Positions 6,679 through 38,688 of a stretch of 47,597 nucleotides of DNA are shown here, piece after piece; position 1 is the stretch's first letter; each line of letters opens with the position of its first letter. Source of the DNA: a virus; UHGV virus genome UHGV-1361682. The stretch is one strand, 5' to 3'. A program made the position numbers and the translations under genes. The notes below the pieces were generated by a model. It did no database searches. It was given only the letters and a program-made list of their open reading frames with translations, and was not told the DNA's origin.

Positions 6679-7254
6679 ATGGCTGAACTGAAACTGACCC
6701 AAGAACAAGCCGCCTTCTACAAGGACATTGATGCCCACAAGTTGGCTGGCGATAAGCTGCGCCCACAGTTCGTCCACAACGGCCGCACCCTGCAGGTATA
6801 CCCCTATGAAACGTGGGATGCTGATGTGATTCTGATTGAAGGTGGCCAGGTTGCCCCATTCCATGAACTGGCTTTTCTCAACATCCCCGAAACCAAAGGG
6901 TTGAATGCTGCGGCGGTTCTGGCTAAGGTAGTGGCAGCGGCGAAGGCGCAGTACAAGTCCGCTGAAGATTCCCAGCGCTTCATCCTGCACTGGGCTCCGG
7001 ATGTGCCTTACTGGTCAGTGACTACTGCAAGCGACGCGTACACAAACCTCGAAGCTGCCAGCCCCGATGGGGAAATGCATATGGTGCTTGCTGCTACTGG
7101 TGACAGCACCAAAGTGCGTATCCACCTGCCGAAAGGTCGAGCCGGTGTCCAGATGACTGTAGGCGCCCCGCTGCGGTGTGATCCTATTGGCCTGTCTGGA
7201 ATCGTCCGCACTGCCCTGATCCGACTGGAAAAAGGCAGCTTCACCCACGTCTGA
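6679..7254 (+). CDS. Hypothetical protein, 191 aa
   Basis: ORF track. A strong RBS, AAGAGGAAG, lies 3 nt upstream of the ATG. Confidence 0.6.
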   Translation: MAELKLTQEQAAFYKDIDAHKLAGDKLRPQFVHNGRTLQVYPYETWDADVILIEGGQVAPFHELAFLNIPETKGLNAAAVLAKVVAAAKAQYKSAEDSQRFILHWAPDVPYWSVTTASDAYTNLEAASPDGEMHMVLAATGDSTKVRIHLPKGRAGVQMTVGAPLRCDPIGLSGIVRTALIRLEKGSFTHV

Positions 7255-7297
7255 TCAAAACCCAATCAAAACCTGAACTCAACAAGGAACCTGAATC

Positions 7298-8131
7298 ATG
7301 AATAAGACCATCATCGCCCTGACCCTGTCCCTGATCGCCACCGTTGCCAACGCCACCAATACCCCGGGCGCAGACTGCGTCGGCGTCAATGCCTGCAAGA
7401 CCAACTCGGACAACAAGACCTTCAACACCACCAACCAGCCCACGGCTTCTGTCAACGGCGTGCACTCGCAAGCACACAGCGACCAGACCCAAGGCCAGCA
7501 CCAAGGCCAGACGGCCACGGGCGGTTCTGTTGGAAGCTTCGGTGTGAACTCCCACACCAGCCTGGCCACCGGCGGGTACATGTACAACAACAAGTCCCTG
7601 AACATCAACCCTGTCACGGTGCCTGCTGCAGCGATGGTGGCCCCTTCGGCCGAGATCAGCCGTATGGCGGACCCGTACTGCGGTCCTCGCCAGCGCGTGA
7701 TGTCTACGGACGTCCAAGGCCGTGTGATCGGCCTGTTCGTGGACAGCAACGTCAAGCTTGGTGAGAACCAGTGGCTGGCCCCCGACTTCGACATGCCGTA
7801 CCGTCGGGTGGAAGTCATGCCCGGCCTTACCCAACTGATCGGCCACAAGGTGCACGAGACCACCACGGTCTTGACCGTGTCCACGTCAGGTGCCATGGCC
7901 TTCGGTGCCAACGGTAGTTCTGGTCAGGGCGGTTCCATCGGAGGGTCCCACGGAGGTGCCCTGCAGCGTATGGTGACAACGATTCGTGTCCAAGAGTGTG
8001 TGGCCTACGAAATCACGCCCGCTAAGGCCCCTAGCAGGCCCGTGGTGCCTTCCAAACCGAAAGCCAAGGTGGTTGCCCCAACCAGGGTGCAGAAAGCCTC
8101 CAAGGCCCTGAAATGCGATTGTGAGAAGTGA
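7298..8131 (+). CDS. Secreted/periplasmic protein, 277 aa, with an N-terminal signal peptide (MNKTIIALTLSLIATVANA), Gly/Ser/Thr/Gln-rich segments and a basic Pro/Lys-rich tail
   Basis: ORF track. The N-terminus has a basic n-region, a hydrophobic core and an AXA cleavage motif. AAGGAA is 8 nt upstream of the ATG. Confidence 0.6.
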   Translation: MNKTIIALTLSLIATVANATNTPGADCVGVNACKTNSDNKTFNTTNQPTASVNGVHSQAHSDQTQGQHQGQTATGGSVGSFGVNSHTSLATGGYMYNNKSLNINPVTVPAAAMVAPSAEISRMADPYCGPRQRVMSTDVQGRVIGLFVDSNVKLGENQWLAPDFDMPYRRVEVMPGLTQLIGHKVHETTTVLTVSTSGAMAFGANGSSGQGGSIGGSHGGALQRMVTTIRVQECVAYEITPAKAPSRPVVPSKPKAKVVAPTRVQKASKALKCDCEK

Positions 8132-10835: not shown

Positions 10836-11620
10836 TGAACTGGTTGCGAGAAGCGCAGGCCCTGCCTGTCGGACGCAGCAAGTGGATACGGCACGGGCAC
10901 TGCAACAAGGATAACCTGATCTTGCACAACAAGCCTGACCGCTGGTCCGCGCTGTGCATGTGGTGCGGGTGGTATGCCCAGCAAATGAAGGAAGTACGTC
11001 AGGCGAAGCCCGTGGCCACGCCAAAGCCCCGTGAACTGCCTGTAGACCTGACGTTGGATGTTCCGGAAGATGTACTCGCAAGCAGGCTTTACCGGTACGG
11101 ACTGCAACCGTCATGGCTGTTCGACTGGAAGCTGAAGTACAGCCCCGGCCAACGGCGCCTGTACTTCATCAACCCAGTGACTGGTGAGTTCGCCAGCAGG
11201 GCCACCACCCCTGATGGCCAGCCTAAATGGCTGCATAGCACCACGAGTACGCTGCTGAAGGCACGGGCCAACGATGACTTCACCATCGTCTGCGAAGACC
11301 TGCTGTCGGCCTTCAAGCTGTATGCAGTGTGTGGCAAGACGGCCAACGTGCTGTGCAGCCACGGGGTTCTGATGAACCGCGAAGCCAAGCGTGTCCTGGT
11401 GCTGTTGGGATGCCCGGTAGTGCTGGCCTACGACGGTGACGATGCCGGACGGCAGGCGGTCCGACGGACCACGGCGGAAGTGTCCCCGTTCCTGGATGTA
11501 CGGGTGTTCAGGGTGCCTGAAGGCGCTGACCCCAAGGACATGTCCATGGACCACATCAACGAGGAGTATAAGCGTGTCATTGCAAACGACGATCCTGCAC
11601 CTTCTGCGCGATCGCGGTAA
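10835..11620 (+). CDS. DNA primase, 261 aa: N-terminal zinc-binding region (HGHC...CMWC) plus TOPRIM-like motifs (E in CEDLLSAF, DGDD in AYDGDDAGR)
   Basis: Track ORF 10613..11620, with the start moved to ATG 10835 (GAGGAG upstream). The motifs are recognised by eye. It sits immediately upstream of the helicase, matching the T7 gp4 / phiKMV primase arrangement. Confidence 0.75.
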   Translation: MNWLREAQALPVGRSKWIRHGHCNKDNLILHNKPDRWSALCMWCGWYAQQMKEVRQAKPVATPKPRELPVDLTLDVPEDVLASRLYRYGLQPSWLFDWKLKYSPGQRRLYFINPVTGEFASRATTPDGQPKWLHSTTSTLLKARANDDFTIVCEDLLSAFKLYAVCGKTANVLCSHGVLMNREAKRVLVLLGCPVVLAYDGDDAGRQAVRRTTAEVSPFLDVRVFRVPEGADPKDMSMDHINEEYKRVIANDDPAPSARSR

Positions 11621-12839
11621 GCTGAACCTGCTGGGTCCGACGATCCCCAAGGGTGATGGAATGGTCGAGACCCAGGCGATCATGGCCTGGTACCGGGCTT
11701 ACCTGAAGAGTAACCCCAGTGCTGAGGAGGTCAGCCTGCAGGCCATCCGTGAGATGATCGCGCTGCAGGCGGACAAAGACCCCGACGGCACAGCCCTGAT
11801 GCTGTCCCTGATCAAACAGCTTGAAGACAATCCACCGACCGAAGGTGAGCTGAGCGCTGTCAGCGACGTGCTGTACTCCAGGCGTCTGGCAGCACAAGCC
11901 CAGGGCATCATCGAGAAGTGGGACCAAGGCGAGGAAATCGACCTGGCCTTCGAGCTTCAAGCCGTTGCCCAGCATGCCATGAAGCTGGCCGGCATGGCAT
12001 CAGCCACGGACTACGAGCGCACACCGATCGAGGAGCTTCTGGAAGAAGCCGACCAGGATGTGGGCCTGAAGTTCAGACGATGGCCAGCCCTGCGGCACTC
12101 GATCCAAGGGGTTCTGGGCGGGATCAGCATCGCCATCGCAGCACGTCCTGACCGTGGGAAGACCAGCCTTGTGGCGGCCATCCTCACGGACTGGGCAGGG
12201 CAGGCGTTCAAGCTGTTCGGTCCGGATCGTCCCATCCTCTGGCTGAACAACGAGGGCAAGGGCAGACGCCTGATTCCTCGCCTGTACCAGTCGGCGCTTG
12301 GCATGACCATGGATGATCTGCAGAAGCTGTCCAAGGCCGGCAAGCTGAAGGAAGCCTACGAGAAGGCCCTGGGAACCCCGTCAGACTTCATCCGGATCAA
12401 GGACATGCACGGGGCCAGCATGGGGCAGATCGAGCGCGTAATCGACGCTGTGAAGCCTTCTGTGGTGGTTGCTGACATGCTGTCGAACTTCCACACCGGA
12501 GTGCCTGGTCAGGCAGCCCATGCCGAGACAGAGCGGGTGTGGGAACTGTGGCGGGAGATTCTGGCCAGGCACGACTGCGTGGGCATCGGTACGATCCAGA
12601 TCAGCCAGGAAGGTGCGAACATGCTGTATCCACCCCAGTCTGCGCTGAAGGAGTCCAAGACTGGTGTACAAGGCGCCGTTGACCTGATCCTGATGATGGG
12701 TAACTTCGATCAGGAAAGCCCAGAGCTGCGCGGCCTGAGTACCCCGAAGAACAAGCTGCAGCGTCCCCGATCACCAGGGTATGTTAAGTGTCAGCTTGTG
12801 TTTGACCCAACCAAATGTGAATTTGTGGAGATGTCATGA
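11574..12839 (+). CDS. Replicative DNA helicase, DnaB/T7 gp4 C-terminal family (Walker A AARPDRGKTSL, Walker B VVVADML)
   Basis: Track ORF 11436..12839. GTG 11574 is chosen (GAGGAG 7 nt upstream; it overlaps the primase end by 47 nt in another frame). ATG 11660 is an alternative start. Confidence 0.75.
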   Translation: MSLQTTILHLLRDRGKLNLLGPTIPKGDGMVETQAIMAWYRAYLKSNPSAEEVSLQAIREMIALQADKDPDGTALMLSLIKQLEDNPPTEGELSAVSDVLYSRRLAAQAQGIIEKWDQGEEIDLAFELQAVAQHAMKLAGMASATDYERTPIEELLEEADQDVGLKFRRWPALRHSIQGVLGGISIAIAARPDRGKTSLVAAILTDWAGQAFKLFGPDRPILWLNNEGKGRRLIPRLYQSALGMTMDDLQKLSKAGKLKEAYEKALGTPSDFIRIKDMHGASMGQIERVIDAVKPSVVVADMLSNFHTGVPGQAAHAETERVWELWREILARHDCVGIGTIQISQEGANMLYPPQSALKESKTGVQGAVDLILMMGNFDQESPELRGLSTPKNKLQRPRSPGYVKCQLVFDPTKCEFVEMS

Positions 12840-13219
12840 TCCCTGCACGAACGATTGAATCCCTGCTGACCACCGGCGACAAGCGCTTCAACGTCAAGCT
12901 CAACGCCGAGTACAAGGTGGGCTCTGCGATGGTCACCGTTGGCGTGTACAAGCCCAAGGGCAAGATATACGCCGCTGGTGCCATCCGGTACAAGGACAGG
13001 CCGGCGAACGATCTGGTGAACAATGTGGCGCTGGAGATCGTGGACCGCCTGCTGTACCACAAGGAAGACCTTGCCGGGGCATGGAGCTTCGACATCGACA
13101 CCTTGAAGGTAACCATCAACGGCGAGAAGTACGAGCTGACGTTTGATGCTCCGCTGCCCCCAACCCCGGATGTGGCGCTGCGGAACGGACTGGAAATAAT
13201 CCTGCAGAGGGGGTACTGA
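12836..13219 (+). CDS. Hypothetical protein, 127 aa
   Basis: ORF track. ATGA overlap with the helicase stop, and GGAG upstream. Confidence 0.55.
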   Translation: MIPARTIESLLTTGDKRFNVKLNAEYKVGSAMVTVGVYKPKGKIYAAGAIRYKDRPANDLVNNVALEIVDRLLYHKEDLAGAWSFDIDTLKVTINGEKYELTFDAPLPPTPDVALRNGLEIILQRGY

Positions 13220-14583
13220 TGTCTGTGATGATCTTGGACTTGGAGACTGAGACCACGGGGAACCCCAAGGACCCCGTCTCCAACCCGTGGAACCCCGAGC
13301 TGTACATCGTGGCTGCTGGCTGGTGCATCGAAGACGCCTACGGCAATGGCACGATCGAGGGCCGGTACTTCGACGGGCCCACAGATGAGGAGTGGCTGAC
13401 CATCCCCGATGAGGTGGACATGCTGGTTGGCCATAACCTCCAGTACGATGTAAAGTGGCTTATGCACCGCCAGCCCAAGGCCATGTGGGGGTTCCTGCAC
13501 CGGGGCGGACGGCTGTTCGACACCCAGACCGCAGAGTTCATCCTCGGCGGCATGACGGAGCTGTACCCCGGCCTGGACACCACTGCCCCACGGTACGGCG
13601 GTACGCAGAAGGTCGATGTGGTCAAGGCGCTGTGGAAGCAGGGCATCAAGACCAGCCAGATCGAGAAGCGGATACTGTTCGACGAGTACCTGCTCGGCCC
13701 ATCTGGGGACATCGAGAACACCCGGAAGGTCTTCTGGGGTCAGGTGCAGGCCCTGCAAGCCAAGGGCATGTGGGACATGTTCATGCTGCGAATGGGTGGA
13801 TACCTGTTCAATACCATGGCGACATACAACGGCATGCACATCGACATGAAGTTGGCGGCAGAGCACCTGGCTGAGCGCGAAGCAGAGTACGAAGAGCTGG
13901 ACAAGTTCGTGCACGAGTCCCTGAAGACACGGGCACCTGACCTGCCCGGCCTGGACTTCAAGGTGACGATCAGCACGAAGCCTGCGCTGCTGTACGGTGG
14001 GTACTACAAGGCCCGGTACAGGGGCTCGTACGACCCCCCGAAGTACGTCAAGGCGGACATGTACAAGGGCGCCGACGGGAAGTATTACCCCGCCGATGGC
14101 CCGGTGCCGGAGGGTGCAGTCACATGGGCCAGTGGGGTGAACAAAGGGGCACCTAAGGTGTTCCGTGTCGATACCGATGAGGAGAAGCTGCGATGGCTTG
14201 AAGCCGAGTACGAACTGCCGGGTATCATCCCGTGGGACCATCTGACTGACGCCTTCCGGGATCGGTTGGAGAACTACGAGACCACTATGACCCACGCCGA
14301 TGGGTCCAAGGTGTACCCGACCGGCAGAGAGTTCATCGAGGCATGGGCCGAACAGCCAAGCATGCCAGAGGAGTGGAAGCCTGTGGCGAAGGCCATGGTC
14401 CGCCTCTCCGAGCTGGACAAAGAGCTGGGCACGTACTACATGAGGACCAACGGTCAGGGCGAGCAGGTAGGTATGCTCACCTACGTAGACCCATACGACA
14501 ACATAGTGCACCATGAGCTGAACACGACATCGGTGAAGACTGGGCGCCTGTCCGGAACGAAGCCTAGAATGTTGGGCTTGTAA
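13219..14583 (+). CDS. Family-A (Pol I/T7 gp5-like) DNA polymerase, N-terminal part: 3'-5' exonuclease domain and start of the polymerase domain. It ends ...TGRLSGTKP followed by 5 non-conserved residues and a stop.
   Basis: Exo motifs are present: LDLETETTG (DxE) and HNLQYDVKW. The ORF terminates inside the conserved Pol I motif GRLSS..PNLQNIP. Confidence 0.8.
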   Translation: MSVMILDLETETTGNPKDPVSNPWNPELYIVAAGWCIEDAYGNGTIEGRYFDGPTDEEWLTIPDEVDMLVGHNLQYDVKWLMHRQPKAMWGFLHRGGRLFDTQTAEFILGGMTELYPGLDTTAPRYGGTQKVDVVKALWKQGIKTSQIEKRILFDEYLLGPSGDIENTRKVFWGQVQALQAKGMWDMFMLRMGGYLFNTMATYNGMHIDMKLAAEHLAEREAEYEELDKFVHESLKTRAPDLPGLDFKVTISTKPALLYGGYYKARYRGSYDPPKYVKADMYKGADGKYYPADGPVPEGAVTWASGVNKGAPKVFRVDTDEEKLRWLEAEYELPGIIPWDHLTDAFRDRLENYETTMTHADGSKVYPTGREFIEAWAEQPSMPEEWKPVAKAMVRLSELDKELGTYYMRTNGQGEQVGMLTYVDPYDNIVHHELNTTSVKTGRLSGTKPRMLGL

Positions 14584-15264
14584 AACCATGTGAAATCAGG
14601 GAACCCTTAGCTGGGAATCCTGAGTGCCGTGCATCATAGGAAAGGCTATGCGCACCATTGAAGATATGATCGAGAACACAACGCTCACTCTTAGCATGAT
14701 CGCTAAGGAACTGGGCGTTACGTTGAAGCAGGTTGGAAAGGTATGGCGGAAGTACCCGGCAGAGTTTCGTAAGCGCCGCAAGCATATTACGTACAGCCGG
14801 GCGCAGAAGATCCACACATGGATGATAGGACGGACTGGCGCCGATCACCCCAATTACAAAGGCGTGGTTGGGGACAACAAGGGGTATCTGATGATGCTCA
14901 AGCCTGATTGGTACACAGGACGCCGCGGTTCGAAGCATGTGTTTCTTCACAACATTGTAGTGTGCGAGCGCCTCAAGATTACTGAAATTCCGAGAGGCTG
15001 GTGTGTCCACCATGTGGATTTCGACCCGCATAACAATGAGTTTGACAACCTTGTCCTGATGACAACATCCGATCATGGTAAGTTACATCAATGGATGAAA
15101 CGGCATGCAACGACTATCTCGAAAGAGAGTACACTCAAGTGGGTGGAAGCGCATGGCACACCCTTCCAAAAAGAAGGTGCTGTGAAGATATAGTCTGATC
15201 TGCATGGAAACATGCAGCTGCCGAAAGGCGGGGCAGGGAGTAACGAACCTGCCCGAACACAATG
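14566..15264 (+). mobile_element. 699-bp insertion splitting the DNA polymerase gene exactly inside the GRLSxxxP|NLxNxP motif. It carries an HNH endonuclease ORF and is a candidate group I intron or homing-endonuclease insertion.
   Basis: The upstream exon would end at U14565 and the element ends in G15264, as expected for a group I intron. The 3' flank 15194-15264 folds into three hairpins, two of them with GAAA tetraloops. The HNH ORF is internal. Confidence 0.55.
14648..15193 (+). CDS. HNH homing endonuclease, 181 aa (HHVDFDPHNNEFDNLVLMTTSDH motif)
   Basis: Track ORF 14624..15193. The start is moved to ATG 14648, with AGGAAAGG upstream. The H-N-H catalytic motif is clear. The gene sits between the two DNA polymerase halves. 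Confidence 0.85.
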   Translation: MRTIEDMIENTTLTLSMIAKELGVTLKQVGKVWRKYPAEFRKRRKHITYSRAQKIHTWMIGRTGADHPNYKGVVGDNKGYLMMLKPDWYTGRRGSKHVFLHNIVVCERLKITEIPRGWCVHHVDFDPHNNEFDNLVLMTTSDHGKLHQWMKRHATTISKESTLKWVEAHGTPFQKEGAVKI

Positions 15265-16272
15265 AATCTCACTAACGTACCGCGTGGAGACACGGCACGT
15301 GTGAAGCTGCTGTTCACCAGCCGGTTCAACGACAGGCTGTGGCTGGACAAACATCGACACGAGATTGGCGATGAGGTCTACCAGTATTGCTTGGAGGGGC
15401 TGGAGGCTGGCGAACCCCGGGGTCGGATGATCGAGATCGACTACTCGGCCCTTGAAGTGGTGGTTCTGGCTGCGTTCAGCAAGGACAAGAACCTGATTGA
15501 CGCTCTGGTCAAGGGTACCGACATGCACTGCATGCGTCTGGCGTCCTCCCTTGGTGAGCCGTACGAGGACGTGCTACGGAAGTGCAAGGACGAGAACGAC
15601 CCTCAGCACGCTGAGTACAAGAAGCTGCGGACCCTAACGAAGCCCAAAGCCTTCCAGTACCAGTACGGGGGCACTGCCTACGGCATGGCGTTCAACCTTG
15701 GATGTACAGTGGAAGAGGCCCAGGAGTTCATTGACAATGAACGGAGGCTGTTCCCCGGGGTTGAGCGCTGGTATGAGCGGAAGGTGTACCCGGAGATCGA
15801 AGGCACTTCGCACACCGTGAAGCTGGCCTACGACGATGGGGAACGCGCTGTGTTCAGGGGCACATGGACCAGCCCTGGCGGCACGGTGTACACCTTCGAG
15901 AAGAGACCCAAGGACGTGTGGATCAACGGCACCAAGACCGTTCAGATGCAGTTCCACACGCCACACATGCGTAACTTCCCGATCCAAGGGGAAGGCAGCT
16001 TCTTCGTCCAAGCCATGGCCGGGGAAGTGATGTGGGCCATCCTGGCCCGCAAGAAATGGCGGAATCTGGTGTACGCGGTCAATCAGGTGCATGACGCCCT
16101 GTACTTCGACACGCTTGACCGACTGGTCACACCTGTGGTAAAAGTAGTGAAGCCGATCATGGAATCCATCCCGGACTTCATGGCGGACTACGGGTACCAA
16201 CTGCCCGTTCCATTCCCGACAGAAGCAGAGGCCGGGGCAAACCTGTTTGAGAAACATCACGTAACCCTGTGA
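15262..16272 (+). CDS. Family-A DNA polymerase, C-terminal part (palm/fingers): motif A DYSALEVVVLA, motif B RTLTKPKAFQYQYGG, motif C QVHDALYFD
   Basis: The ORF begins MNLTNVP, which continues the PNLQNIP motif broken off in the upstream ORF. The conserved Pol I motifs are recognised by eye. Confidence 0.8.
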   Translation: MNLTNVPRGDTARVKLLFTSRFNDRLWLDKHRHEIGDEVYQYCLEGLEAGEPRGRMIEIDYSALEVVVLAAFSKDKNLIDALVKGTDMHCMRLASSLGEPYEDVLRKCKDENDPQHAEYKKLRTLTKPKAFQYQYGGTAYGMAFNLGCTVEEAQEFIDNERRLFPGVERWYERKVYPEIEGTSHTVKLAYDDGERAVFRGTWTSPGGTVYTFEKRPKDVWINGTKTVQMQFHTPHMRNFPIQGEGSFFVQAMAGEVMWAILARKKWRNLVYAVNQVHDALYFDTLDRLVTPVVKVVKPIMESIPDFMADYGYQLPVPFPTEAEAGANLFEKHHVTL

Positions 16273-31456: not shown

Positions 31457-34252
31457 ATGGCAATCCTGCGAGACTCTGAGCCGTTCCGTCGGCAAACCGA
31501 TGACACCCGTAAAGCGGGGCAGTGGTCTGGTATTGGCCAGGCTGGGGCCTCGCAGGGTGCATCGCAAAAGCGCTTCCACAACAACGAAGGCTTTTACAAT
31601 GCACTGGACCGATTGGGGGATACCCTCCACAAGGGTCTGCTGAAGCGACAGCAGATCGACTTCGACAACGCCTACCTGGCTGGCCAAGCCAAGGCTGGGA
31701 TTATCCAGGCTGAGGATGAGATTCAGAACGACCCGCTGACCCGGGACTTCGAGGTGGCTGGGTACCGCCAGGCCATGGCCAAGCTGGCTCTGGCTGAGGA
31801 GCAGCAGCGCTTCAAGGAAGACCTGCCGTACCTTCGGACCCTCGACGCAGAGGGCCTGGAAGGGTACATGACCCGCAGACGGAACACCCTGAACCCGATG
31901 CTGGCCGGACTGGCTGTGAAGGACCGTGCTGCTGCTGCTCAGCAGATGGCCGACCTCGACTTCAGTCACACCGTGCAGTGGAAGACCGAACGGCAGAAGT
32001 ACATCATCGATGAGAAGATGGCTGCCACCACCACCCAGCTGGCTGCGTTCCTTCAGGACATGCACGAAGCTCAGGTGCAGTTCGACACTGGTCAGATTGA
32101 CGAGCGCTCCTACCTGACCCGGATGGGCAGCTTCACCGAGGTGCTGAAAGCAACCTGGGATGATGACTCCCTGCCCCGCCAGGTGAAGGAGCAGTTCACT
32201 GCCCAGGCATTCCAGTCTGCGCTGCAGCAGGGTAACACCCAGCTGTATGACATCCTGACGTCCCAGAAGTTCGACAACAACATCGGCTCGGAAGAGGTGG
32301 ACGGCCCGAACTACCGGGAAGCCAGTACCTTCCTGGCACGTCTGCCCCAAGAGACTCAGAACCAGCTGGCTGGCATGTATGCCCAGGCTGAGCAGAAGCG
32401 CTCCTGGATGAAGAACTTCCAGGGCATCCAGACTGTGGCTGACCTGCGCGCACAGATTCACAACGAAGCCTACACCGGGAACCTGCAGGACTTCGACAGG
32501 CTTACCAAACCCCTGATCCACTCTGGGGCCATGTCTGTTGACGAGTATCAGCAGATGCGTGCCCAGCTTCAGTACGTCCGCAAGACTGCTGATGAGAAGG
32601 CTTTCAGCCCAGCCCCGTTCCTGTCGGGTAACCTGATGGAGCTGCTGGCCAACGGCACCACACCTGAGAAGGCTGCCCAGGCCACAGTGCAACAGATGGC
32701 TGCATCTGGGGCATCCCCTGCCCAGATTCTCGATGCCATGACCACCGCGGCCAAGAACGGTATGGTGGCTGCAGCCGGGAAGCAGATCGGGCAGATGGCT
32801 GATGTGGCCATGCAATCCGTGCTGTCCAACGATGGCAAGGTGCTGTCCCAGCACAAGGAGATGCTGGACTCGATCATCCAGAAGATGGACGATGAGGACA
32901 AGTCAGGCAATGTGTACTACCGGCAGACCATCATGGCTGGGATGTCCCCGGAGATGCGTGGTCAGTTCGAGGGGTACATGAAGAAGCTGAAGGCTGGTAA
33001 GTCAGTCGAGGTTGCTCTGTCGGAGATCGCTAAGGACGAGGCTGCTGCCAAGGCCATGCCTGCAGAGGCCCGTGCTGCCCGTGCTGCACAGCTACAGGAC
33101 GTGTACAGCAAGGCTGATGCAATGGTCCGGGATCACCGGGGCCTGTTCGCCACCATGTGGCTGAAGGCGGGTGCCCTGCTTGGTGGTGAGCAGTCTGCTG
33201 CTGAGCTGAAGCTCCGGACATCAGATTGGGCCTTCGAGGACAACCACTTCAAGACCCGCATCTACCAGAACGCAATCCAGGGTGAAGTTCGTGAGGCCAT
33301 CAAGAACATCGCCATGGCCAATCCGTCCTACGACGGTGACTCGGTGATGGACCTGGCCCTGGCCGATGTGGCTTCGCGCACCATCGAGACGAAGTGGGGT
33401 CCGGTTCCTCTGCCCCAGGGATTCTACGACACCTTTGCTTCCAAGACAGGGCTTGGCCCAGGCCAGCAGTCCATGCTGGGCAAGGCCATCGATAACCTGA
33501 CCCGTGCTGGCCATGAGGACGGTTATGTCCATGTCAAGGTGGATAGCAACGGCCGTCTGATGGCTGACTCGTACGACAAGTCCGGGAACATGGATGCTCT
33601 GGAATCCCACGAGCTGTCCCCCGAGCTAATCCGGGATGAGGTCAAGCGACTGACAGATGCCGAGGCCAAGTACAACAACGCCGTCTACGGTGATGGGTAC
33701 AAGGCTGATGGCAAAGGTGGGTCGGTGATCTTCAACGGCGCCAACGCCGCCGGTGTTCCGCACCCGGTGATGTTCGCCGTGCGGTGGGTGCTGTCCAAGT
33801 TCGAGGGAGTCACAGACACCCCGTACCAGGATGGCAAGTTCAAGTCCGTGGGTGTTGGGATCAATGAGCAGAACCCACACTACCCCGAGTCCGCCCGGAA
33901 GACCGGCAAGGCCAGCCCAGAGGACATCAACAAGTCCTTCGCCGCCGCGTCGGAGGCTGCTGTGAAGTCCGCCAAGAACATCCTCGAAGGTCTGGGGATG
34001 AACGTAGGCAACTCTGCCCTGCTGGAGATGGCATCGTCCATGGCCTATCAGGGTGGTGAAGGCTTTGCGATCGGCAAGACCCCATCGGCGAAAGCTGGCA
34101 GGGCTATGCTGGAAGCAGTGAAGGAAGGCGACTACGACAAGGCCCTGGCCGAGTTCAAGAAGACCGCAGTGTACAAGGTGAGTCCCGAGGACCGCCGTCG
34201 GTACTATGTAGCACGGCTGCACACAGCAGCCACATCATCGAAGGTTCAGTAA
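31457..34252 (+). CDS. Internal virion protein B (gp15-like), 931 aa
   Basis: ORF track. Size and position are as in T7-like phages. Confidence 0.65.
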   Translation: MAILRDSEPFRRQTDDTRKAGQWSGIGQAGASQGASQKRFHNNEGFYNALDRLGDTLHKGLLKRQQIDFDNAYLAGQAKAGIIQAEDEIQNDPLTRDFEVAGYRQAMAKLALAEEQQRFKEDLPYLRTLDAEGLEGYMTRRRNTLNPMLAGLAVKDRAAAAQQMADLDFSHTVQWKTERQKYIIDEKMAATTTQLAAFLQDMHEAQVQFDTGQIDERSYLTRMGSFTEVLKATWDDDSLPRQVKEQFTAQAFQSALQQGNTQLYDILTSQKFDNNIGSEEVDGPNYREASTFLARLPQETQNQLAGMYAQAEQKRSWMKNFQGIQTVADLRAQIHNEAYTGNLQDFDRLTKPLIHSGAMSVDEYQQMRAQLQYVRKTADEKAFSPAPFLSGNLMELLANGTTPEKAAQATVQQMAASGASPAQILDAMTTAAKNGMVAAAGKQIGQMADVAMQSVLSNDGKVLSQHKEMLDSIIQKMDDEDKSGNVYYRQTIMAGMSPEMRGQFEGYMKKLKAGKSVEVALSEIAKDEAAAKAMPAEARAARAAQLQDVYSKADAMVRDHRGLFATMWLKAGALLGGEQSAAELKLRTSDWAFEDNHFKTRIYQNAIQGEVREAIKNIAMANPSYDGDSVMDLALADVASRTIETKWGPVPLPQGFYDTFASKTGLGPGQQSMLGKAIDNLTRAGHEDGYVHVKVDSNGRLMADSYDKSGNMDALESHELSPELIRDEVKRLTDAEAKYNNAVYGDGYKADGKGGSVIFNGANAAGVPHPVMFAVRWVLSKFEGVTDTPYQDGKFKSVGVGINEQNPHYPESARKTGKASPEDINKSFAAASEAAVKSAKNILEGLGMNVGNSALLEMASSMAYQGGEGFAIGKTPSAKAGRAMLEAVKEGDYDKALAEFKKTAVYKVSPEDRRRYYVARLHTAATSSKVQ

Positions 34253-37200
34253 TGGCGAAATACTCTGTCCCAATGCCCGGCCGCTTCGGTGGCCTGCCTG
34301 AGATTCCCCAGGAAACCCTTGGCCCTGGCAAGGCATCTGCTCATACCGGTCCGGGCTGGGCAGAGTATGGTGACTACACAGTCCATGTCACTGACAAGTC
34401 CGAGCAGAACATCACCCCTGCTCGGGAGTCCAGAGCCCAGCGTGCCCAGCGCCGCGACGCTCTGGACCACAGCATGTGGGAGTCGTTCCAGGCCGGCCTC
34501 ATGGAGACCATCCCTGCCAAGGTGTTGGCAGCGACGTGGTACGGCCGTCCGGACTTCAAGGACGACACCACAATCAACCATCACACTTACCTGCAGAACA
34601 CCCCCCTGTCCCTGACTGAGGCTGAGCGGGAGTTCTTCATGGACAACGCCCGTGGGCAGAAGTCTGCCGAGTGGGCACTGGAACGAATCAAGGACTGGCG
34701 TCGTGTCCGGGAGACCGAGTCGTCCCACGCCGTGACAGCCTTCGGTGCCTCGATGCTGGACCCGGTGAACGTGGTCCCCGGTGGTGCTGCAGTCAGATAT
34801 GCCGGTGGTATCCGGAATCGCCTGATCGCTGGTGCCGTAACAGGGGCTGCCAACGCAGGGCTGGAATCAGTCATGAGCCCACTGGGTGCCAACCCAGTCG
34901 AGTCTGACGAGGTGCTGTCCGCTGGTATCCTCGGTGGGATCACAGGGATGTTCTACCGTGCCAGGGTACGGCCTGCCAAGGCCACGCCAGACAAGCCGGT
35001 GGATACCCCGGATGCCCCGCAGGCGCCCACCCCCGCAGGAGCCCCCACAAGCCCTTCTACGGCCCTCGCAGCCCCTGGTAAGGCAACCACCCCAGCCCTG
35101 TCCCCAGAGTTCCCTACAGGCCACTCTAGAGGCCCTGTAGCCGGTTTGCTGGAGTCGCCTTCGGGTGACCTGCCCCCATACTACTGGGGGGTCCCTCGGC
35201 TGCCTGCTCCAGAAGTCAAACCAGTGGCCCTGCCTGACCCAAACATCACGCTGAGGCTGGAAGGTCCGGCTACTGGTGTGGTGGGCCGTGCCCAAGTGAT
35301 CCCAATCCGGGAACCTGAGCTGCAGGTAATCGAAGGCCCGGCTCTGCTGGAAGCTCCTCAACGCGATCTGCAGAAGGCCCTGTTCTACGACAAGAACGCT
35401 GATGCTGAGGATGTGTACTTCAAGGATGTTGATCCGAAGACCTCCCCTGTGGTACACCTGACCCAGGATGAGATTGACAGCCTGGGACTCCCCCCGGACA
35501 TCAAAATGCCCGTGGAGAATCCGGAGATCGTCGCCAAGTACCTCAAGGCTTCAGCCAATGACGAGCTTGGTGGGATCAAGTCTGGGGAACCTCTGCGGTT
35601 CGGCAAGCGCAAGGTCGAAGCTGTCAACGCCGAGTCCATAGGGCACCGTGGTGCTGCCAACGACGATGTGGCCGGTAGGCACCTGCACGACACCGCATCC
35701 GCCAACGACGCCGACTTCGGTAACCCGAATCCCTGGGAACACACATCCCACTTCACTGATTCTGCCAACGATGTAGAATACACCCGACCGGCCCTTCCGG
35801 CCCCTGTACGCGCCAAGCTGTTGGAGTACAAGGCAAGAAATTCTTTTGCTGTTAATGAGAATCAATTGCGTTTGGGGTACACGAAGGCTGATGTCGAGTC
35901 GATCGAAGCCCAGAAGCACCCACGCAACGCCGAGAAGCGCATAGCTGCTGCTGCCCACAAGGCTGCTGTAGAGGCACGGAAGAAGGCCACTGCTGAAGCC
36001 CGTGCTGCTGCTCGGGAACAGCGTGAGGCCCACCAGGCTGCTCTGAAGGCTGCCAATGAGGCCACGCGAGCTGCCAAGGCTGCTGAGGCGAAGGCCAAAG
36101 CTGCCGAAGCCAAAGCCAAGCTTCAGGCTGAGCGTGCTGCTAAGCGTGCTGAGGCCAAGGCTGCTGCTGCCCAGCGCAAGGCTGATCAGGCTGTCTTCAA
36201 GGCCAAGCAGGCACAAGCTGCTCAGAAAGCCTCTCAGAAGGCTTCAAACGGGCCTACAACGGCTTCAGTGAGTCAGGGTAGTACAACCCCTTCGGGGATG
36301 TCTCCGAACGATCCTGCGGTCCAACAGGCGGCTCAGCACACTGCTTCCCAGCAGGCCGCTGCAGCTGGTGGGGGGTCTGGTAAGCCTCCGACACAGCCCC
36401 CGGCTGGCCAGTCGGCTGCTGCCCAGCCCCCGAGTCCTCCCCCAGGACCGAACGCCACCCTGGCACAAATCCTGCAGGGCAGTGGGCCGAACACCCTTGG
36501 GCACATCCCCGACCACGTCGGCAAGACGGTCGCGTCGAAGCTGGCCTGGAACATGCACAAGACAATGTCGAGCTGGGGAAAAGCCGGGCAGCTGGTCGCT
36601 GACCTGCTGTACGATGATGTGCTCAGCCCGGGCAAGGTGTCTGTGGAGTCCGAGCGTGCAGCGGCACTGGCCCAGCTGAGGCAACACCAGCACAAGTTCA
36701 CGGACATGTTCCGTGAGCGGATGAAGCAGGATGGCTGGGGTACATGGGAGCAGATGACACAAGGCCGTGGGTACTACAATGCCCAGCGCAAGCTGGAGCA
36801 AGACCTGTACGCCGAGATGGCTGCGCGGCAGAATGCCACCGCCACTGGCGCGCCTCATGTCAGCACCCGGCCTGATCTGAAGGAGCTGGCTGACCAGCTG
36901 GACCTTATCCACCGCGAGGCCCTGGATGAGCTGAAGCGTGCTGGTGTCGAGAACGCTGCTGATCTGAAGGAGTCCTCTGGCTACCTGTCCCGCAAGTGGG
37001 ACATGTACGGGATGGAGCAGACCATTCAGCGTCTGGACGGTATGGGACTGGATGGGAAGCAAGCTGTGGCTGATATGCTGCAGAAGTCGATCCTGGCCAG
37101 GACACCGCTGCTGCCCGCTGACGTTGCGATGGAGATGGCCAAAGCCATCCGGGACCGTACGCTCCGGAAGGGCTACTTCGAGGACAACATCGGGCAGGGA

Positions 37201-38688
37201 GTCCCTGACGCCGTGAAGGCTACGGTGATCGATGGGATGAACAAGGCTGGTGTCCCCGACAGTGTGCAGAAGGCTGTGCTGGATGCTCTGGATGGTACAC
37301 AGGACGCCAACTCGGGTCCGAAGTATCTAAAGTCCCGGATCGGCATGGACCTTCTGTCTGAGGTCACCCTGCCCAATGGGGAGAAGCTCAGGCCAATCGA
37401 TCTGCTGGACACGAGCATCAATCGGAATGTGGACCAGTACCTTCAGAAGGTGGCCACGGACGCAGCTCTGGCCCGTAAGGGTCTTGGCAAGACGTCAGAC
37501 ATCATGAAGGTCCGGGCACACCTGCTGCACAACATCGACCCTAAGCATCGGGCTGATGCTGCGGAGCTGTTCGACAACACTATGGCCTACTACAAGGGCA
37601 TGCCCTCGGGTGCCAAGGTGAACGAGAACTTCCGCAGGGTCCGTGCGCTGGGCAGCATGACTGCCCTGTCGGCATCGGGTCTGTGGCAGCTGACTGAGAT
37701 GGCTACCGTGCTGGGCAAGTTCGGTCTGGGGGCATCGCTGAAGGTCATGGCATCCAAGATGCCGGGATTCAGGTCGTTGCTGGCACCTCAGAACGCCACT
37801 GCTCTGGAGCACCTGCTGTCGGATCACTCCGCAGGTAGCATCCGTCTGCAGCCGTTCCTTCGTCGGTGGGAAGACCTGCATGACATGTCCATCGGAAGCC
37901 AGGCCAACAGGTTCGATCTGTTCCTGGAAGCCGGTCAGAACCTGGTGCCCTACGCCAACGGCATGAAGTTCATCCACCACATGCAGGCCAAGCTGGTTGC
38001 CAACCTGATGACCCAGCAGTTGGAGAACGCTGCCAAGGGGAACAAGAAGGCCCGTACCTTGCTGCAGAAGCTGGGTGTGGACGACGCTGCCATGTACCGA
38101 CTCGAAGCTGCCTATGCAAAGCATGGGCTGGACATCGATGCCTGGGATGATGCAGACTTCGACGCCATCCGTCCTGCACTCATCCGGGGTATGGACGACT
38201 TCGTACTGAAGCAACGTCTCGGGGGGACTCCGGCCTTCGTGGCCTTCAACCCCGTGGGCAAGCTGTTGTTCACGTACCGAAACTTCGTCATCTCGGCACA
38301 CAACCAAATCCTGGTGCAGAACCTTGCGTCCAAGGACGGCGGTGCTCTTATGATGATGATGCTGTACCAGTACCCGCTGGCAGTGGTGGCTGCTCAGGCA
38401 AATGCTACGCTGAGGGGGCAGGATGATGCTGACCCGCTCAAGGATGCTCTGGGACAGATGGGGGCCTTGGGCCTGCTGTCTGAACCGGTGCGCTGGGCTA
38501 CGGGACAAGCCAATGCGTTTGGTTCCCCGGCCCTGATCCCGATCGACACTGGGATCAAACTGGGCCAGCAGCTATTGCACGGTGAAGCGTACAAGGCGGC
38601 TGGGACTGCAATCAAGGCCGCTCCCCTGATCAGCATCCTTCCGGGGGTGAAGGGTCTGGGTGCAGCAGTCTCGAATCTGGAAGAGTAA
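34252..38688 (+). CDS. Internal virion protein C (gp16-like), 1478 aa, with a Pro-rich segment (aa ~245-300) and a long Ala/Lys/Glu/Arg-rich coiled-coil-like tract (aa ~560-650)
   Basis: ORF track. It is the largest gene and directly precedes the tail fibre gene, as T7 gp16 does. ATGG overlap with the previous stop. Confidence 0.7.
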   Translation: MAKYSVPMPGRFGGLPEIPQETLGPGKASAHTGPGWAEYGDYTVHVTDKSEQNITPARESRAQRAQRRDALDHSMWESFQAGLMETIPAKVLAATWYGRPDFKDDTTINHHTYLQNTPLSLTEAEREFFMDNARGQKSAEWALERIKDWRRVRETESSHAVTAFGASMLDPVNVVPGGAAVRYAGGIRNRLIAGAVTGAANAGLESVMSPLGANPVESDEVLSAGILGGITGMFYRARVRPAKATPDKPVDTPDAPQAPTPAGAPTSPSTALAAPGKATTPALSPEFPTGHSRGPVAGLLESPSGDLPPYYWGVPRLPAPEVKPVALPDPNITLRLEGPATGVVGRAQVIPIREPELQVIEGPALLEAPQRDLQKALFYDKNADAEDVYFKDVDPKTSPVVHLTQDEIDSLGLPPDIKMPVENPEIVAKYLKASANDELGGIKSGEPLRFGKRKVEAVNAESIGHRGAANDDVAGRHLHDTASANDADFGNPNPWEHTSHFTDSANDVEYTRPALPAPVRAKLLEYKARNSFAVNENQLRLGYTKADVESIEAQKHPRNAEKRIAAAAHKAAVEARKKATAEARAAAREQREAHQAALKAANEATRAAKAAEAKAKAAEAKAKLQAERAAKRAEAKAAAAQRKADQAVFKAKQAQAAQKASQKASNGPTTASVSQGSTTPSGMSPNDPAVQQAAQHTASQQAAAAGGGSGKPPTQPPAGQSAAAQPPSPPPGPNATLAQILQGSGPNTLGHIPDHVGKTVASKLAWNMHKTMSSWGKAGQLVADLLYDDVLSPGKVSVESERAAALAQLRQHQHKFTDMFRERMKQDGWGTWEQMTQGRGYYNAQRKLEQDLYAEMAARQNATATGAPHVSTRPDLKELADQLDLIHREALDELKRAGVENAADLKESSGYLSRKWDMYGMEQTIQRLDGMGLDGKQAVADMLQKSILARTPLLPADVAMEMAKAIRDRTLRKGYFEDNIGQGVPDAVKATVIDGMNKAGVPDSVQKAVLDALDGTQDANSGPKYLKSRIGMDLLSEVTLPNGEKLRPIDLLDTSINRNVDQYLQKVATDAALARKGLGKTSDIMKVRAHLLHNIDPKHRADAAELFDNTMAYYKGMPSGAKVNENFRRVRALGSMTALSASGLWQLTEMATVLGKFGLGASLKVMASKMPGFRSLLAPQNATALEHLLSDHSAGSIRLQPFLRRWEDLHDMSIGSQANRFDLFLEAGQNLVPYANGMKFIHHMQAKLVANLMTQQLENAAKGNKKARTLLQKLGVDDAAMYRLEAAYAKHGLDIDAWDDADFDAIRPALIRGMDDFVLKQRLGGTPAFVAFNPVGKLLFTYRNFVISAHNQILVQNLASKDGGALMMMMLYQYPLAVVAAQANATLRGQDDADPLKDALGQMGALGLLSEPVRWATGQANAFGSPALIPIDTGIKLGQQLLHGEAYKAAGTAIKAAPLISILPGVKGLGAAVSNLEE

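Follow-up and report, generated by a model that had tools for sequence, protein, structure and literature searches.

Is the DNA polymerase of the viral genome UHGV-1361682 made as one protein or as two? In this genome, whose 47,597 nucleotides were analysed at full length and are called the window here, the family A DNA polymerase gene (polA) is interrupted by a segment carrying an open reading frame (ORF) for an HNH endonuclease. The first-pass annotation had offered two answers, a group I intron or a free-standing endonuclease gene that had divided polA into two subunits. Our analysis favours the intron: with a probability of about 0.93, positions 14566..15264 are a mobile group IA2 intron with an HNH gene, and RNA splicing almost certainly yields a single polymerase protein. 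This reading is backed by a covarying ribozyme core, an exact empty site, a gap-free spliced protein and homology to the self-splicing intron at the same site in phage Pf-WMP3.

Joined exons and the empty site

The first-pass annotation had described the upstream ORF as ending in five extra residues and a stop, and the downstream ORF as starting M-NLTNVPRGD; the ORF list bore this out (Table 1), the residues being RMLGL, and the remaining sequence statements of that annotation were confirmed as well. Its proposal that joining P14565 to N15265 recreates a Pol I motif also held. Joining 14565 to 15265 gave GRLSGTKP|NLTNVP within a protein of 784 aa with zero internal stops, and the ligated exons were predicted to read ...GGAACGAAGCCU|AAUCUCACUAAC across the junction (AAGCCU|AAUCUC at the RNA level). 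Exon 2 matched Pfam DNA_pol_A (E=2.8e-22). The spliced polymerase was aligned with the intron-less polymerase of SnaP-R1 in a single high-scoring segment pair (residues 3-782, 43.7% identity) and with that of phage Bertil, also intron-less, in one such pair (41.4%), and in both the junction was free of gaps. The predicted spliced product thus fits a family A DNA polymerase, with a continuous match to intron-less members once the exons are joined.

When viral contigs were scanned with the spliced protein, five relatives came up, all from one metagenome (IMG 3300045988). In four of them (L034-L037) the polymerase gene was uninterrupted, exactly 784 codons long and 93% identical in nucleotides to the joined exons of the window; across the insertion site these alleles read ..GGAACGAAACCG|AA(T/C)CTCACTAAC.., colinear with the window exons. 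The fifth relative (L038, the same contig as L023) had a 698-nt copy of the intron in the same place. The empty-site alleles fixed the length of the insert at 699 nt. From DNA comparison the boundary was ambiguous by one base because A14566 and A15265 are identical, and the rule that a U precedes a group I intron and a G terminates it led to the choice of 14566..15264. The intron is thereby preceded by U14565 (T in the DNA) and closed by G15264, the two flanking bases that the first-pass annotation had pointed out. Neither direct repeats nor tRNAs were found in the window, so a transposon-like or integrase-type element was not indicated.

Covariation of the ribozyme core

Homologs were collected by BLAST and a pattern scan from phages PPWS1, BF25/12, PhAPEC5/7, Moonfish, LLY, AbpL, phiB1_1 and phiL7 and from IMG/VR contigs, and 16 distinct intron copies, with P6 and the ORF removed, were aligned with MAFFT. 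RNAalifold, run on this alignment with no structure supplied, recovered P3, P4, P5, P7.1, P7.2, P8, P9 and P9.2, and 23 of its 46 pairs showed compensatory changes among the 16 homologs. With P7 added, 23 of 51 pairs carried compensatory changes and 98.4% of 812 alignment cells were standard pairs, as against 30-46% when the partners were slid by 1-3 columns, and none of 500 shuffles reached any of the pairing measures. The long-range helix P3 was paired in 100% of cells and had compensatory changes in 3/7 pairs, CCAUGUG/CGCAUGG being replaced by CCGUGUG/CGCACGG, CUCCGUG/CGCGGAG or CUACGUG/CGCGUAG. Compensatory changes were also seen at all six aligned pairs of P8 and in five of seven pairs each of P9 and P9.2.

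The intron has the full group IA2 set of elements (P1, P3-P9, P7.1-GUA-P7.2, P9.1 and P9.2), with P2 absent. P7.1 and P7.2 joined by GUA is the mark by which subgroup IA2 is recognised (PMC3428280), and in the window UCUCGAAAGAGA-GUA-CACUCAAGUGGGUG lies at 15117-15145, between P7 and the 3' strand of P3. J8/7 with the 3' strand of P7, the most conserved element of the group I core, was found in an exact consensus form (Table 1). By analogy, G15112-C15195 is presumed to be the guanosine-binding pair and C15111 the bulge. P6 and P6a, which close the ORF-holding loop, had an RNAduplex energy of -15.3 kcal/mol, and an equivalent pairing was present in 18/18 family members.

The P1 helix ties the ribozyme to its exon. 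In the window the last exon bases pair with the internal guide sequence (IGS), with a U14565.G14574 wobble at the 5' splice site and the loop AGAAUGUU. P1 covaried with the exon in RNAduplex comparisons (AAGCCU/GGGCUU, AACCCU/GGGGUU, GAACCU/GGGUUC, GAGACCU/GGGUCUC and GACCCU/GGGGUC), including AACCUU/GGAGGUU in copies inserted 6 nt further downstream. In the window and 17 homologs, without exception, each exon end paired with its own IGS and the terminal U.G was kept.

At the 3' side, the segment 15100-15264 folded by itself into the hairpins listed in Table 1 (z = -3.6 against shuffles), with the peripheral hairpins P9, P9.1 and P9.2 occupying 15200..15254. The first-pass annotation had noticed consecutive hairpins here, two of them with GAAA loops; three such loops were found (P7.1, P9 and P9.1). 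RNAfold gave P9, P9.1 and P9.2 hairpins with differing sequences in most family members, phiL7 having only two there.

A further comparison was possible between the window and the intron-bearing contig L038. Their exons differed by 7.2%, and their introns at 39 sites, of which 35 lay in the part that is ORF only and 4 in the ~250 nt of ribozyme segments; none fell at intron positions 467-602, where ORF and core overlap. Such a pattern is as expected with the RNA structure under selection.

Two polymerase ORFs or one spliced gene

Phage genes split by free-standing endonucleases exist, as in T4-like nrdA/mobE, and the same could be imagined here: a free-standing HNH gene would have split polA, and the halves would be translated separately, the second from the ATG at 15262, into a two-subunit polymerase. 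Two separate ORFs can indeed be called, many GenBank records of homologs annotate two, and the ATG sits precisely at 15262. However, this ATG is formed by the last three bases of the intron and is not conserved, the homologous introns ending in AAAG, AACG, CAGG, AAGG or CAAG, and in PPWS1 the first in-frame ATG of exon 2 lies beyond polymerase motif A. As the first-pass annotation had itself observed, no Shine-Dalgarno (SD) sequence precedes position 15262 (the upstream sequence is CCUGCCCGAACACA). The complete covarying ribozyme and the exon-IGS pairing are features that a free-standing gene has no reason to keep, and evolution of the ORF is far faster than that of the ribozyme parts. Fission of polA, the other answer of the first-pass annotation, is therefore disfavoured and considered highly improbable.

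Under the intron reading, the polymerase gene would be transcribed as a single pre-mRNA, in which the intron RNA would fold into a group I core (the P3-P7 pseudoknot, P4-P6, P7.1/P7.2, P8 and P9-P9.2), with P1 presenting the U.G of the 5' site. Along the canonical group I pathway, a free guanosine held in P7 would attack after U14565, the 3'-OH of exon 1 would then attack after the terminal G15264, and the exons would be ligated in frame (..GTKP|NLTNVP..) to encode one 784-aa polymerase. Self-splicing by the window copy is inferred by analogy with its homologs.

Rfam scan and points against the intron

The group I scan that the first-pass annotation had proposed gave a positive result by E-value, although at the gathering threshold Rfam returned no match on the whole window. 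Intron_gpI (RF00028) matched 14952-15217 with 32.8 bits (E=2.7e-6 local, 1.1e-4 window-wide) and was the sole intron-type Rfam match in the window under E-value reporting. The match included exact agreement with the core consensus at UGCAACGACUA (J6/7-P7) and GAAGAUAUAGUCU (J8/7-P7').

Some observations weigh against the intron. The Intron_gpI score does not reach the gathering score of 50; no variation among the homologs is seen in P7 or most of P4, which puts them beyond the reach of covariation; a C.C mismatch occurs once in P8 of the window; and P10 in the window is at most 3 bp (AAU x GUU), no better than shuffled controls by duplex energy. Some homologs have a clear P10, such as BF25/12 (7 bp) and L031 (6 bp).

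The low Rfam score follows from the ribozyme being split by the ~470-nt ORF loop in P6. The other ORF-containing members that were scanned (phiL7, PPWS1, PhAPEC5 and L023) likewise fell below the threshold, and an ORF-less phiKZ relative with the same core scored 87.6 bits. The gathering threshold is a curation cut-off and not a structural defining feature. Covariance-model scans at the Rfam threshold miss ORF-containing phage introns, of which the window intron is an example.

The weak P10 and the P8 mismatch would suit an intron that is decayed or depends on a host factor, one that self-splices inefficiently and leaves the polymerase under-produced or reliant on a chaperone or other factor. 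An overlap of ~95 nt between the ORF and the core, where translating ribosomes could disturb folding, points the same way, as does the family member L027, which appears not to restore the frame. Yet the polymerase is essential in the phiKMV-like phage type, all core elements and both predicted splice-site nucleotides are intact in the window, and the intron has been kept with only 4 ribozyme-segment differences in a second contig whose exons are 7% different. An overlap of ORF and core is found also in the intron of Pf-WMP3, which self-splices (PMC3428280). Decay or dependence on such a factor is accordingly judged very unlikely, and a working group IA2 intron is preferred.

The Rfam model did not bridge the ORF, and its alignment placed P1-P3 inside the HNH ORF (CACCAUGUGG, 15007-15016). 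This placement was rejected because this second CCAUGUG is absent from most homologs and the upstream copy at 14586-14592 covaries with the 3' strand of P3. The second CCAUGUG corresponds to the H-H-V codons of the HNH motif (VHHVD) and was seen only in the window, L023 and Moonfish; it can also pair with the P3 3' strand, probably by coincidence.

The HNH endonuclease ORF

The claim of the first-pass annotation that the 699-nt segment encodes an HNH protein was confirmed by matches of the 181-aa product to Pfam HNH_3 (residues 113-144, E=6.9e-7) and to phrog_7545 (E=3e-42). The protein was 60% identical to the PPWS1 intron ORF, 53% to phiL7 gp45, 42% to I-PfoP3I and up to 65% to Friunavirus copies; the gene is intact, and by sequence its product is a member of the I-PfoP3I / phiL7 gp45 family, which is characterised. 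A PDB sequence search with the HNH protein gave no match at E<=1. The ORF is preceded by the SD sequence AGGAAAGG at 14638-14645; most homologs have AGGAGG in a small hairpin there, unlike the window.

Beginning in the P6 loop, the ORF extends through P6a', P6', P7, P7.1, P7.2, P3' and P8, so that ~95 nt at its 3' end (15094-15193) are both coding sequence and ribozyme core. In all homologs it ends at J8/7. Positions 15106-15165 were ~97% identical to the Acinetobacter phage copies, against ~69% for the remaining ORF, and the encoded tail ATTISKESTLKWVEAHG is conserved in line with this.

Nicking by the window endonuclease is expected by analogy with its homologs. During mixed infection it would nick intron-less polymerase alleles near the insertion site, and repair of the nicked allele would copy the intron in, as in homing by the homologous elements.

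Known relatives of the intron

Since SPO1 (1990), this polymerase site has been known to host group I introns. The window element is an ordinary member of a well-documented class, the mobile IA2 introns that carry HNH nickases and sit at position 674 of family A polymerases in phages, and what is new here is only a sequence variant in an undescribed phage; the rating of the locus as notable in the first-pass annotation was too high. In E. coli Pol I numbering, polymerase introns lie at 674 (SPO1, SP82, Bastille and Pf-WMP3), 676 (phiL7) and 881 (PhiI and W31) (PMC3428280). The window intron is inserted behind the P in KP|N, at site 674.

The Pf-WMP3 polymerase intron belongs to group IA2, has every helix but P2, has P7.1 and P7.2 joined by G-U-A, pairs its terminal exonic U with G and ends in a 3' terminal G; its ORF begins within P6a and forms part of P6-P7.2, and self-splicing has been shown both in vitro and in vivo (PMC3428280). 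Its endonuclease I-PfoP3I is a site-specific nickase with a 14-bp recognition sequence, the nick in the gene that lacks the intron falling 4 nt upstream of the insertion point, and the C-terminal HNH motif of its family is unconventional, most other HNH matches carrying the motif N-terminally (PMC3428280). The window intron resembles it in the site, in identical P1 strands (AAGCCU/GGGCUU), in the lack of P2, in P7.1-GUA-P7.2, in an ORF that reaches from the P6 region through P7-P7.2 and carries a C-terminal HNH motif, in the endonuclease (42% identical over 87% of the length) and in the 5' ribozyme part, where 70/90 bases are identical. It differs in two extra 3' hairpins (P9.1 and P9.2), in the sequences of P7.2 and P8, and in an ORF that extends through P3' and P8 to J8/7. 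Pf-WMP3 is a cyanophage, whereas the window is a phiKMV-like proteobacterial podophage.

The intron of Xanthomonas phage phiL7, with HNH protein gp45 (Lee et al. 2009, cited in PMC3428280), aligned with the window over the whole ribozyme with compensatory changes. Its endonuclease was 53% identical to that of the window, and its ORF is laid out in P6 in the same way. It is inserted, however, 6 nt downstream (..PNL|Q.., site 676), its IGS is GGAGGUU, and it has no P9.1. In-vivo splicing was reportedly described in the phiL7 paper.

The closest database relatives were the annotated polymerase introns of PPWS1, BF25/12, PhAPEC5/7, Moonfish, Providencia PS3 and the Friunavirus and Drulisvirus phages of Acinetobacter and Klebsiella. 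These introns were 67-70% identical in nucleotides to the window over the 3' half of the ORF and the ribozyme, with endonucleases 55-65% identical and, in most, an identical 45-nt stretch as the P7-P3' segment; the window differs in having its own P5 and P6 sequences. The introns of SPO1, SP82 and Bastille (I-HmuI, I-HmuII and I-BasI) share site 674, class IA2 and HNH nicking endonucleases with the window (PMC3428280), but belong to Gram-positive myophages; the comparison with them covered site and class description. Those of the T7-like phages PhiI and W31 (I-TslI) are also IA2 introns that hold an HNH ORF and lie in the family A polymerase of podophages, but are inserted at E. coli 881 (PMC3428280).

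Alleles and spread of the intron family

The ~93%-identical contigs of IMG 3300045988 form a presence/absence polymorphism, L034-L037 (3001-5352) being intron-less and L038 (3001-6050) intron-bearing. Immediately before the site, the sequence is AAGCCT in both intron-bearing alleles (window and L038) and AAACCG in all four that lack the intron. The alleles differ there at two synonymous bases, -4 and -1 in exon numbering, which belong to the exon strand of P1. By analogy, both positions likely lie inside the recognition sequence of the endonuclease. The bases at -1 and -4 may have been co-converted with the intron or selected as needed for P1. A live homing arms race, in which the intron-less alleles would be cleavage-resistant, unspliceable "immune" sites, is a tentative and rather unlikely extension of these data. 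Related to it is a possible switch at the overlap of ORF and core, where endonuclease translation and ribozyme folding would be mutually exclusive.

The family occurs at two polymerase sites 6 nt apart (..P|NLQ.. and ..PNL|Q..), with L002 (BF25/12), L007 (phiB1_1), L008 (phiL7), L015 and L030 set against the window, and the IGS is retargeted to fit the site, GGG(G/C)UU becoming GGAGGUU. In L016 (IMGVR_UViG_3300045988_015752, ~7052-7818), a 767-nt copy of the intron core interrupts nrdD, the gene for anaerobic ribonucleotide reductase. This copy has the identical 45-nt P7-P3' segment, and joining its exons gives a continuous match to Pfam NRDD. Here, too, the 5' exon ends in AACCCU, suggestive of ectopic spread to a site fitting the guide sequence. 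The plus and minus alleles, the two sites 6 nt apart and the nrdD copy are a ready substrate for studies of homing-site specificity.

In L027 (IMGVR_UViG_3300042991_000128), which reads ...ACAAG|TACAGAACC, no terminal G restores the polymerase frame; a sequencing error or a decayed copy may account for this.

Annotation and genome context

The correct annotation of the locus is one joined coding sequence (CDS; 13219..14565 + 15265..16272) together with an intron that encodes an endonuclease. In L001, L002, L005, L006, L007, L011, L012 and other GenBank records, the polymerase exons are annotated as separate "DNA polymerase" CDSs, and some records start the second CDS at a downstream ATG, losing conserved residues. 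A joined CDS is given in few records (Providencia PS3, Pf-WMP3).

The window is a phiKMV-like (Autographiviridae-type) podophage genome, and no near-identical phage was found in the INPHARED collection. The gene order is primase/helicase, polymerase N-half, HNH ORF, polymerase C-half, a phrog_862 protein and a 5'-3' exonuclease.

Table 1. Positions in the window of the polymerase gene, its intron and the intron elements
Feature	Position	Strand	Remarks
Primase/helicase gene	11436..12839		Upstream of polymerase N-half
Polymerase N-half ORF	13219..14583		Ends ...SVKTGRLSGTKP + RMLGL + stop
polA exon 1	13219..14565	+	449 codons; 3'-5' exonuclease domain and N-terminal part of polymerase domain; ends ...GRLSGTKP
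Group I (IA2-type) intron, probable	14566..15264	+	699 nt; Rfam Intron_gpI, covariation in 16 homologs, exact empty site
P1	14560..14579	+	Exon AAGCCU (14560-14565) pairs with IGS GGGCUU (14574-14579)
P3, 5' strand	14586..14592	+	CCAUGUG; pairs with 15150-15156; long-range helix from RNAalifold
P4	14596-14601 / 14618-14623	+	Encloses P5; 98% paired across homologs
P5	14604-14606 / 14613-14615	+	Compensatory change in 2/3 pairs
P6	14624-14630 / 15100-15106	+	GUGCCGU / ACGGCAU; closes ORF-holding loop
P6a	14632-14635 / 15094-15097	+	CAUC / GAUG; closes ORF-holding loop
HNH homing-endonuclease gene	14648..15193	+	181 aa; ATG 14648, stop 15191-15193 (UAG in J8/7-P7')
P7	15112-15116 / 15191-15195	+	GACUA / UAGUC; matches Rfam consensus ...CAaAGACUA / AAGAUAUAGUC; invariant in 16 homologs
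P7.1	15117-15128	+	UCUC-GAAA-GAGA; GAAA loop
P7.2	15132-15145	+	CACUC-AAGU-GGGUG; joined to P7.1 by GUA linker
P3, 3' strand	15150..15156	+	CGCAUGG; RNAalifold, covariation
P8 hairpin	15157-15160 / 15181-15184 and 15162-15166 / 15173-15177	+	Also in single-sequence fold
J8/7 and P7 3' strand	15185..15195	+	AAGAUA and UAGUC; exact match to Rfam consensus AAGAUAUAGUC
P9	15200-15217	+	Hairpin, GAAA loop
P9.1	15218-15231	+	Hairpin, GAAA loop
P9.2	15232-15253	+	Hairpin, conserved UAACGA loop
Terminal (omega) G, predicted 3' splice site	15264	+	G ends intron in 18/18 family members before restored exon frame; empty-site comparison
Polymerase C-half ORF	15262..16272		Begins M-NLTNVPRGD
polA exon 2	15265..16272	+	335 codons + stop; starts NLTNVPRGD; DYSALEV (motif A) and HDA (motif C) regions

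A 601-aa ORF runs antisense to polA exon 1 on the - strand (12784..14589). No gene signs turned up for it in passing, the ORF itself not having been searched, and codon composition on the sense strand most likely accounts for it.

At 35992-36202 (+), Rfam gave a weak match to the proteobacterial small RNA sX6 (23.4 bits, E=0.042, gathering score 40). It falls within a large ORF (34252..38688) and is probably due to chance.

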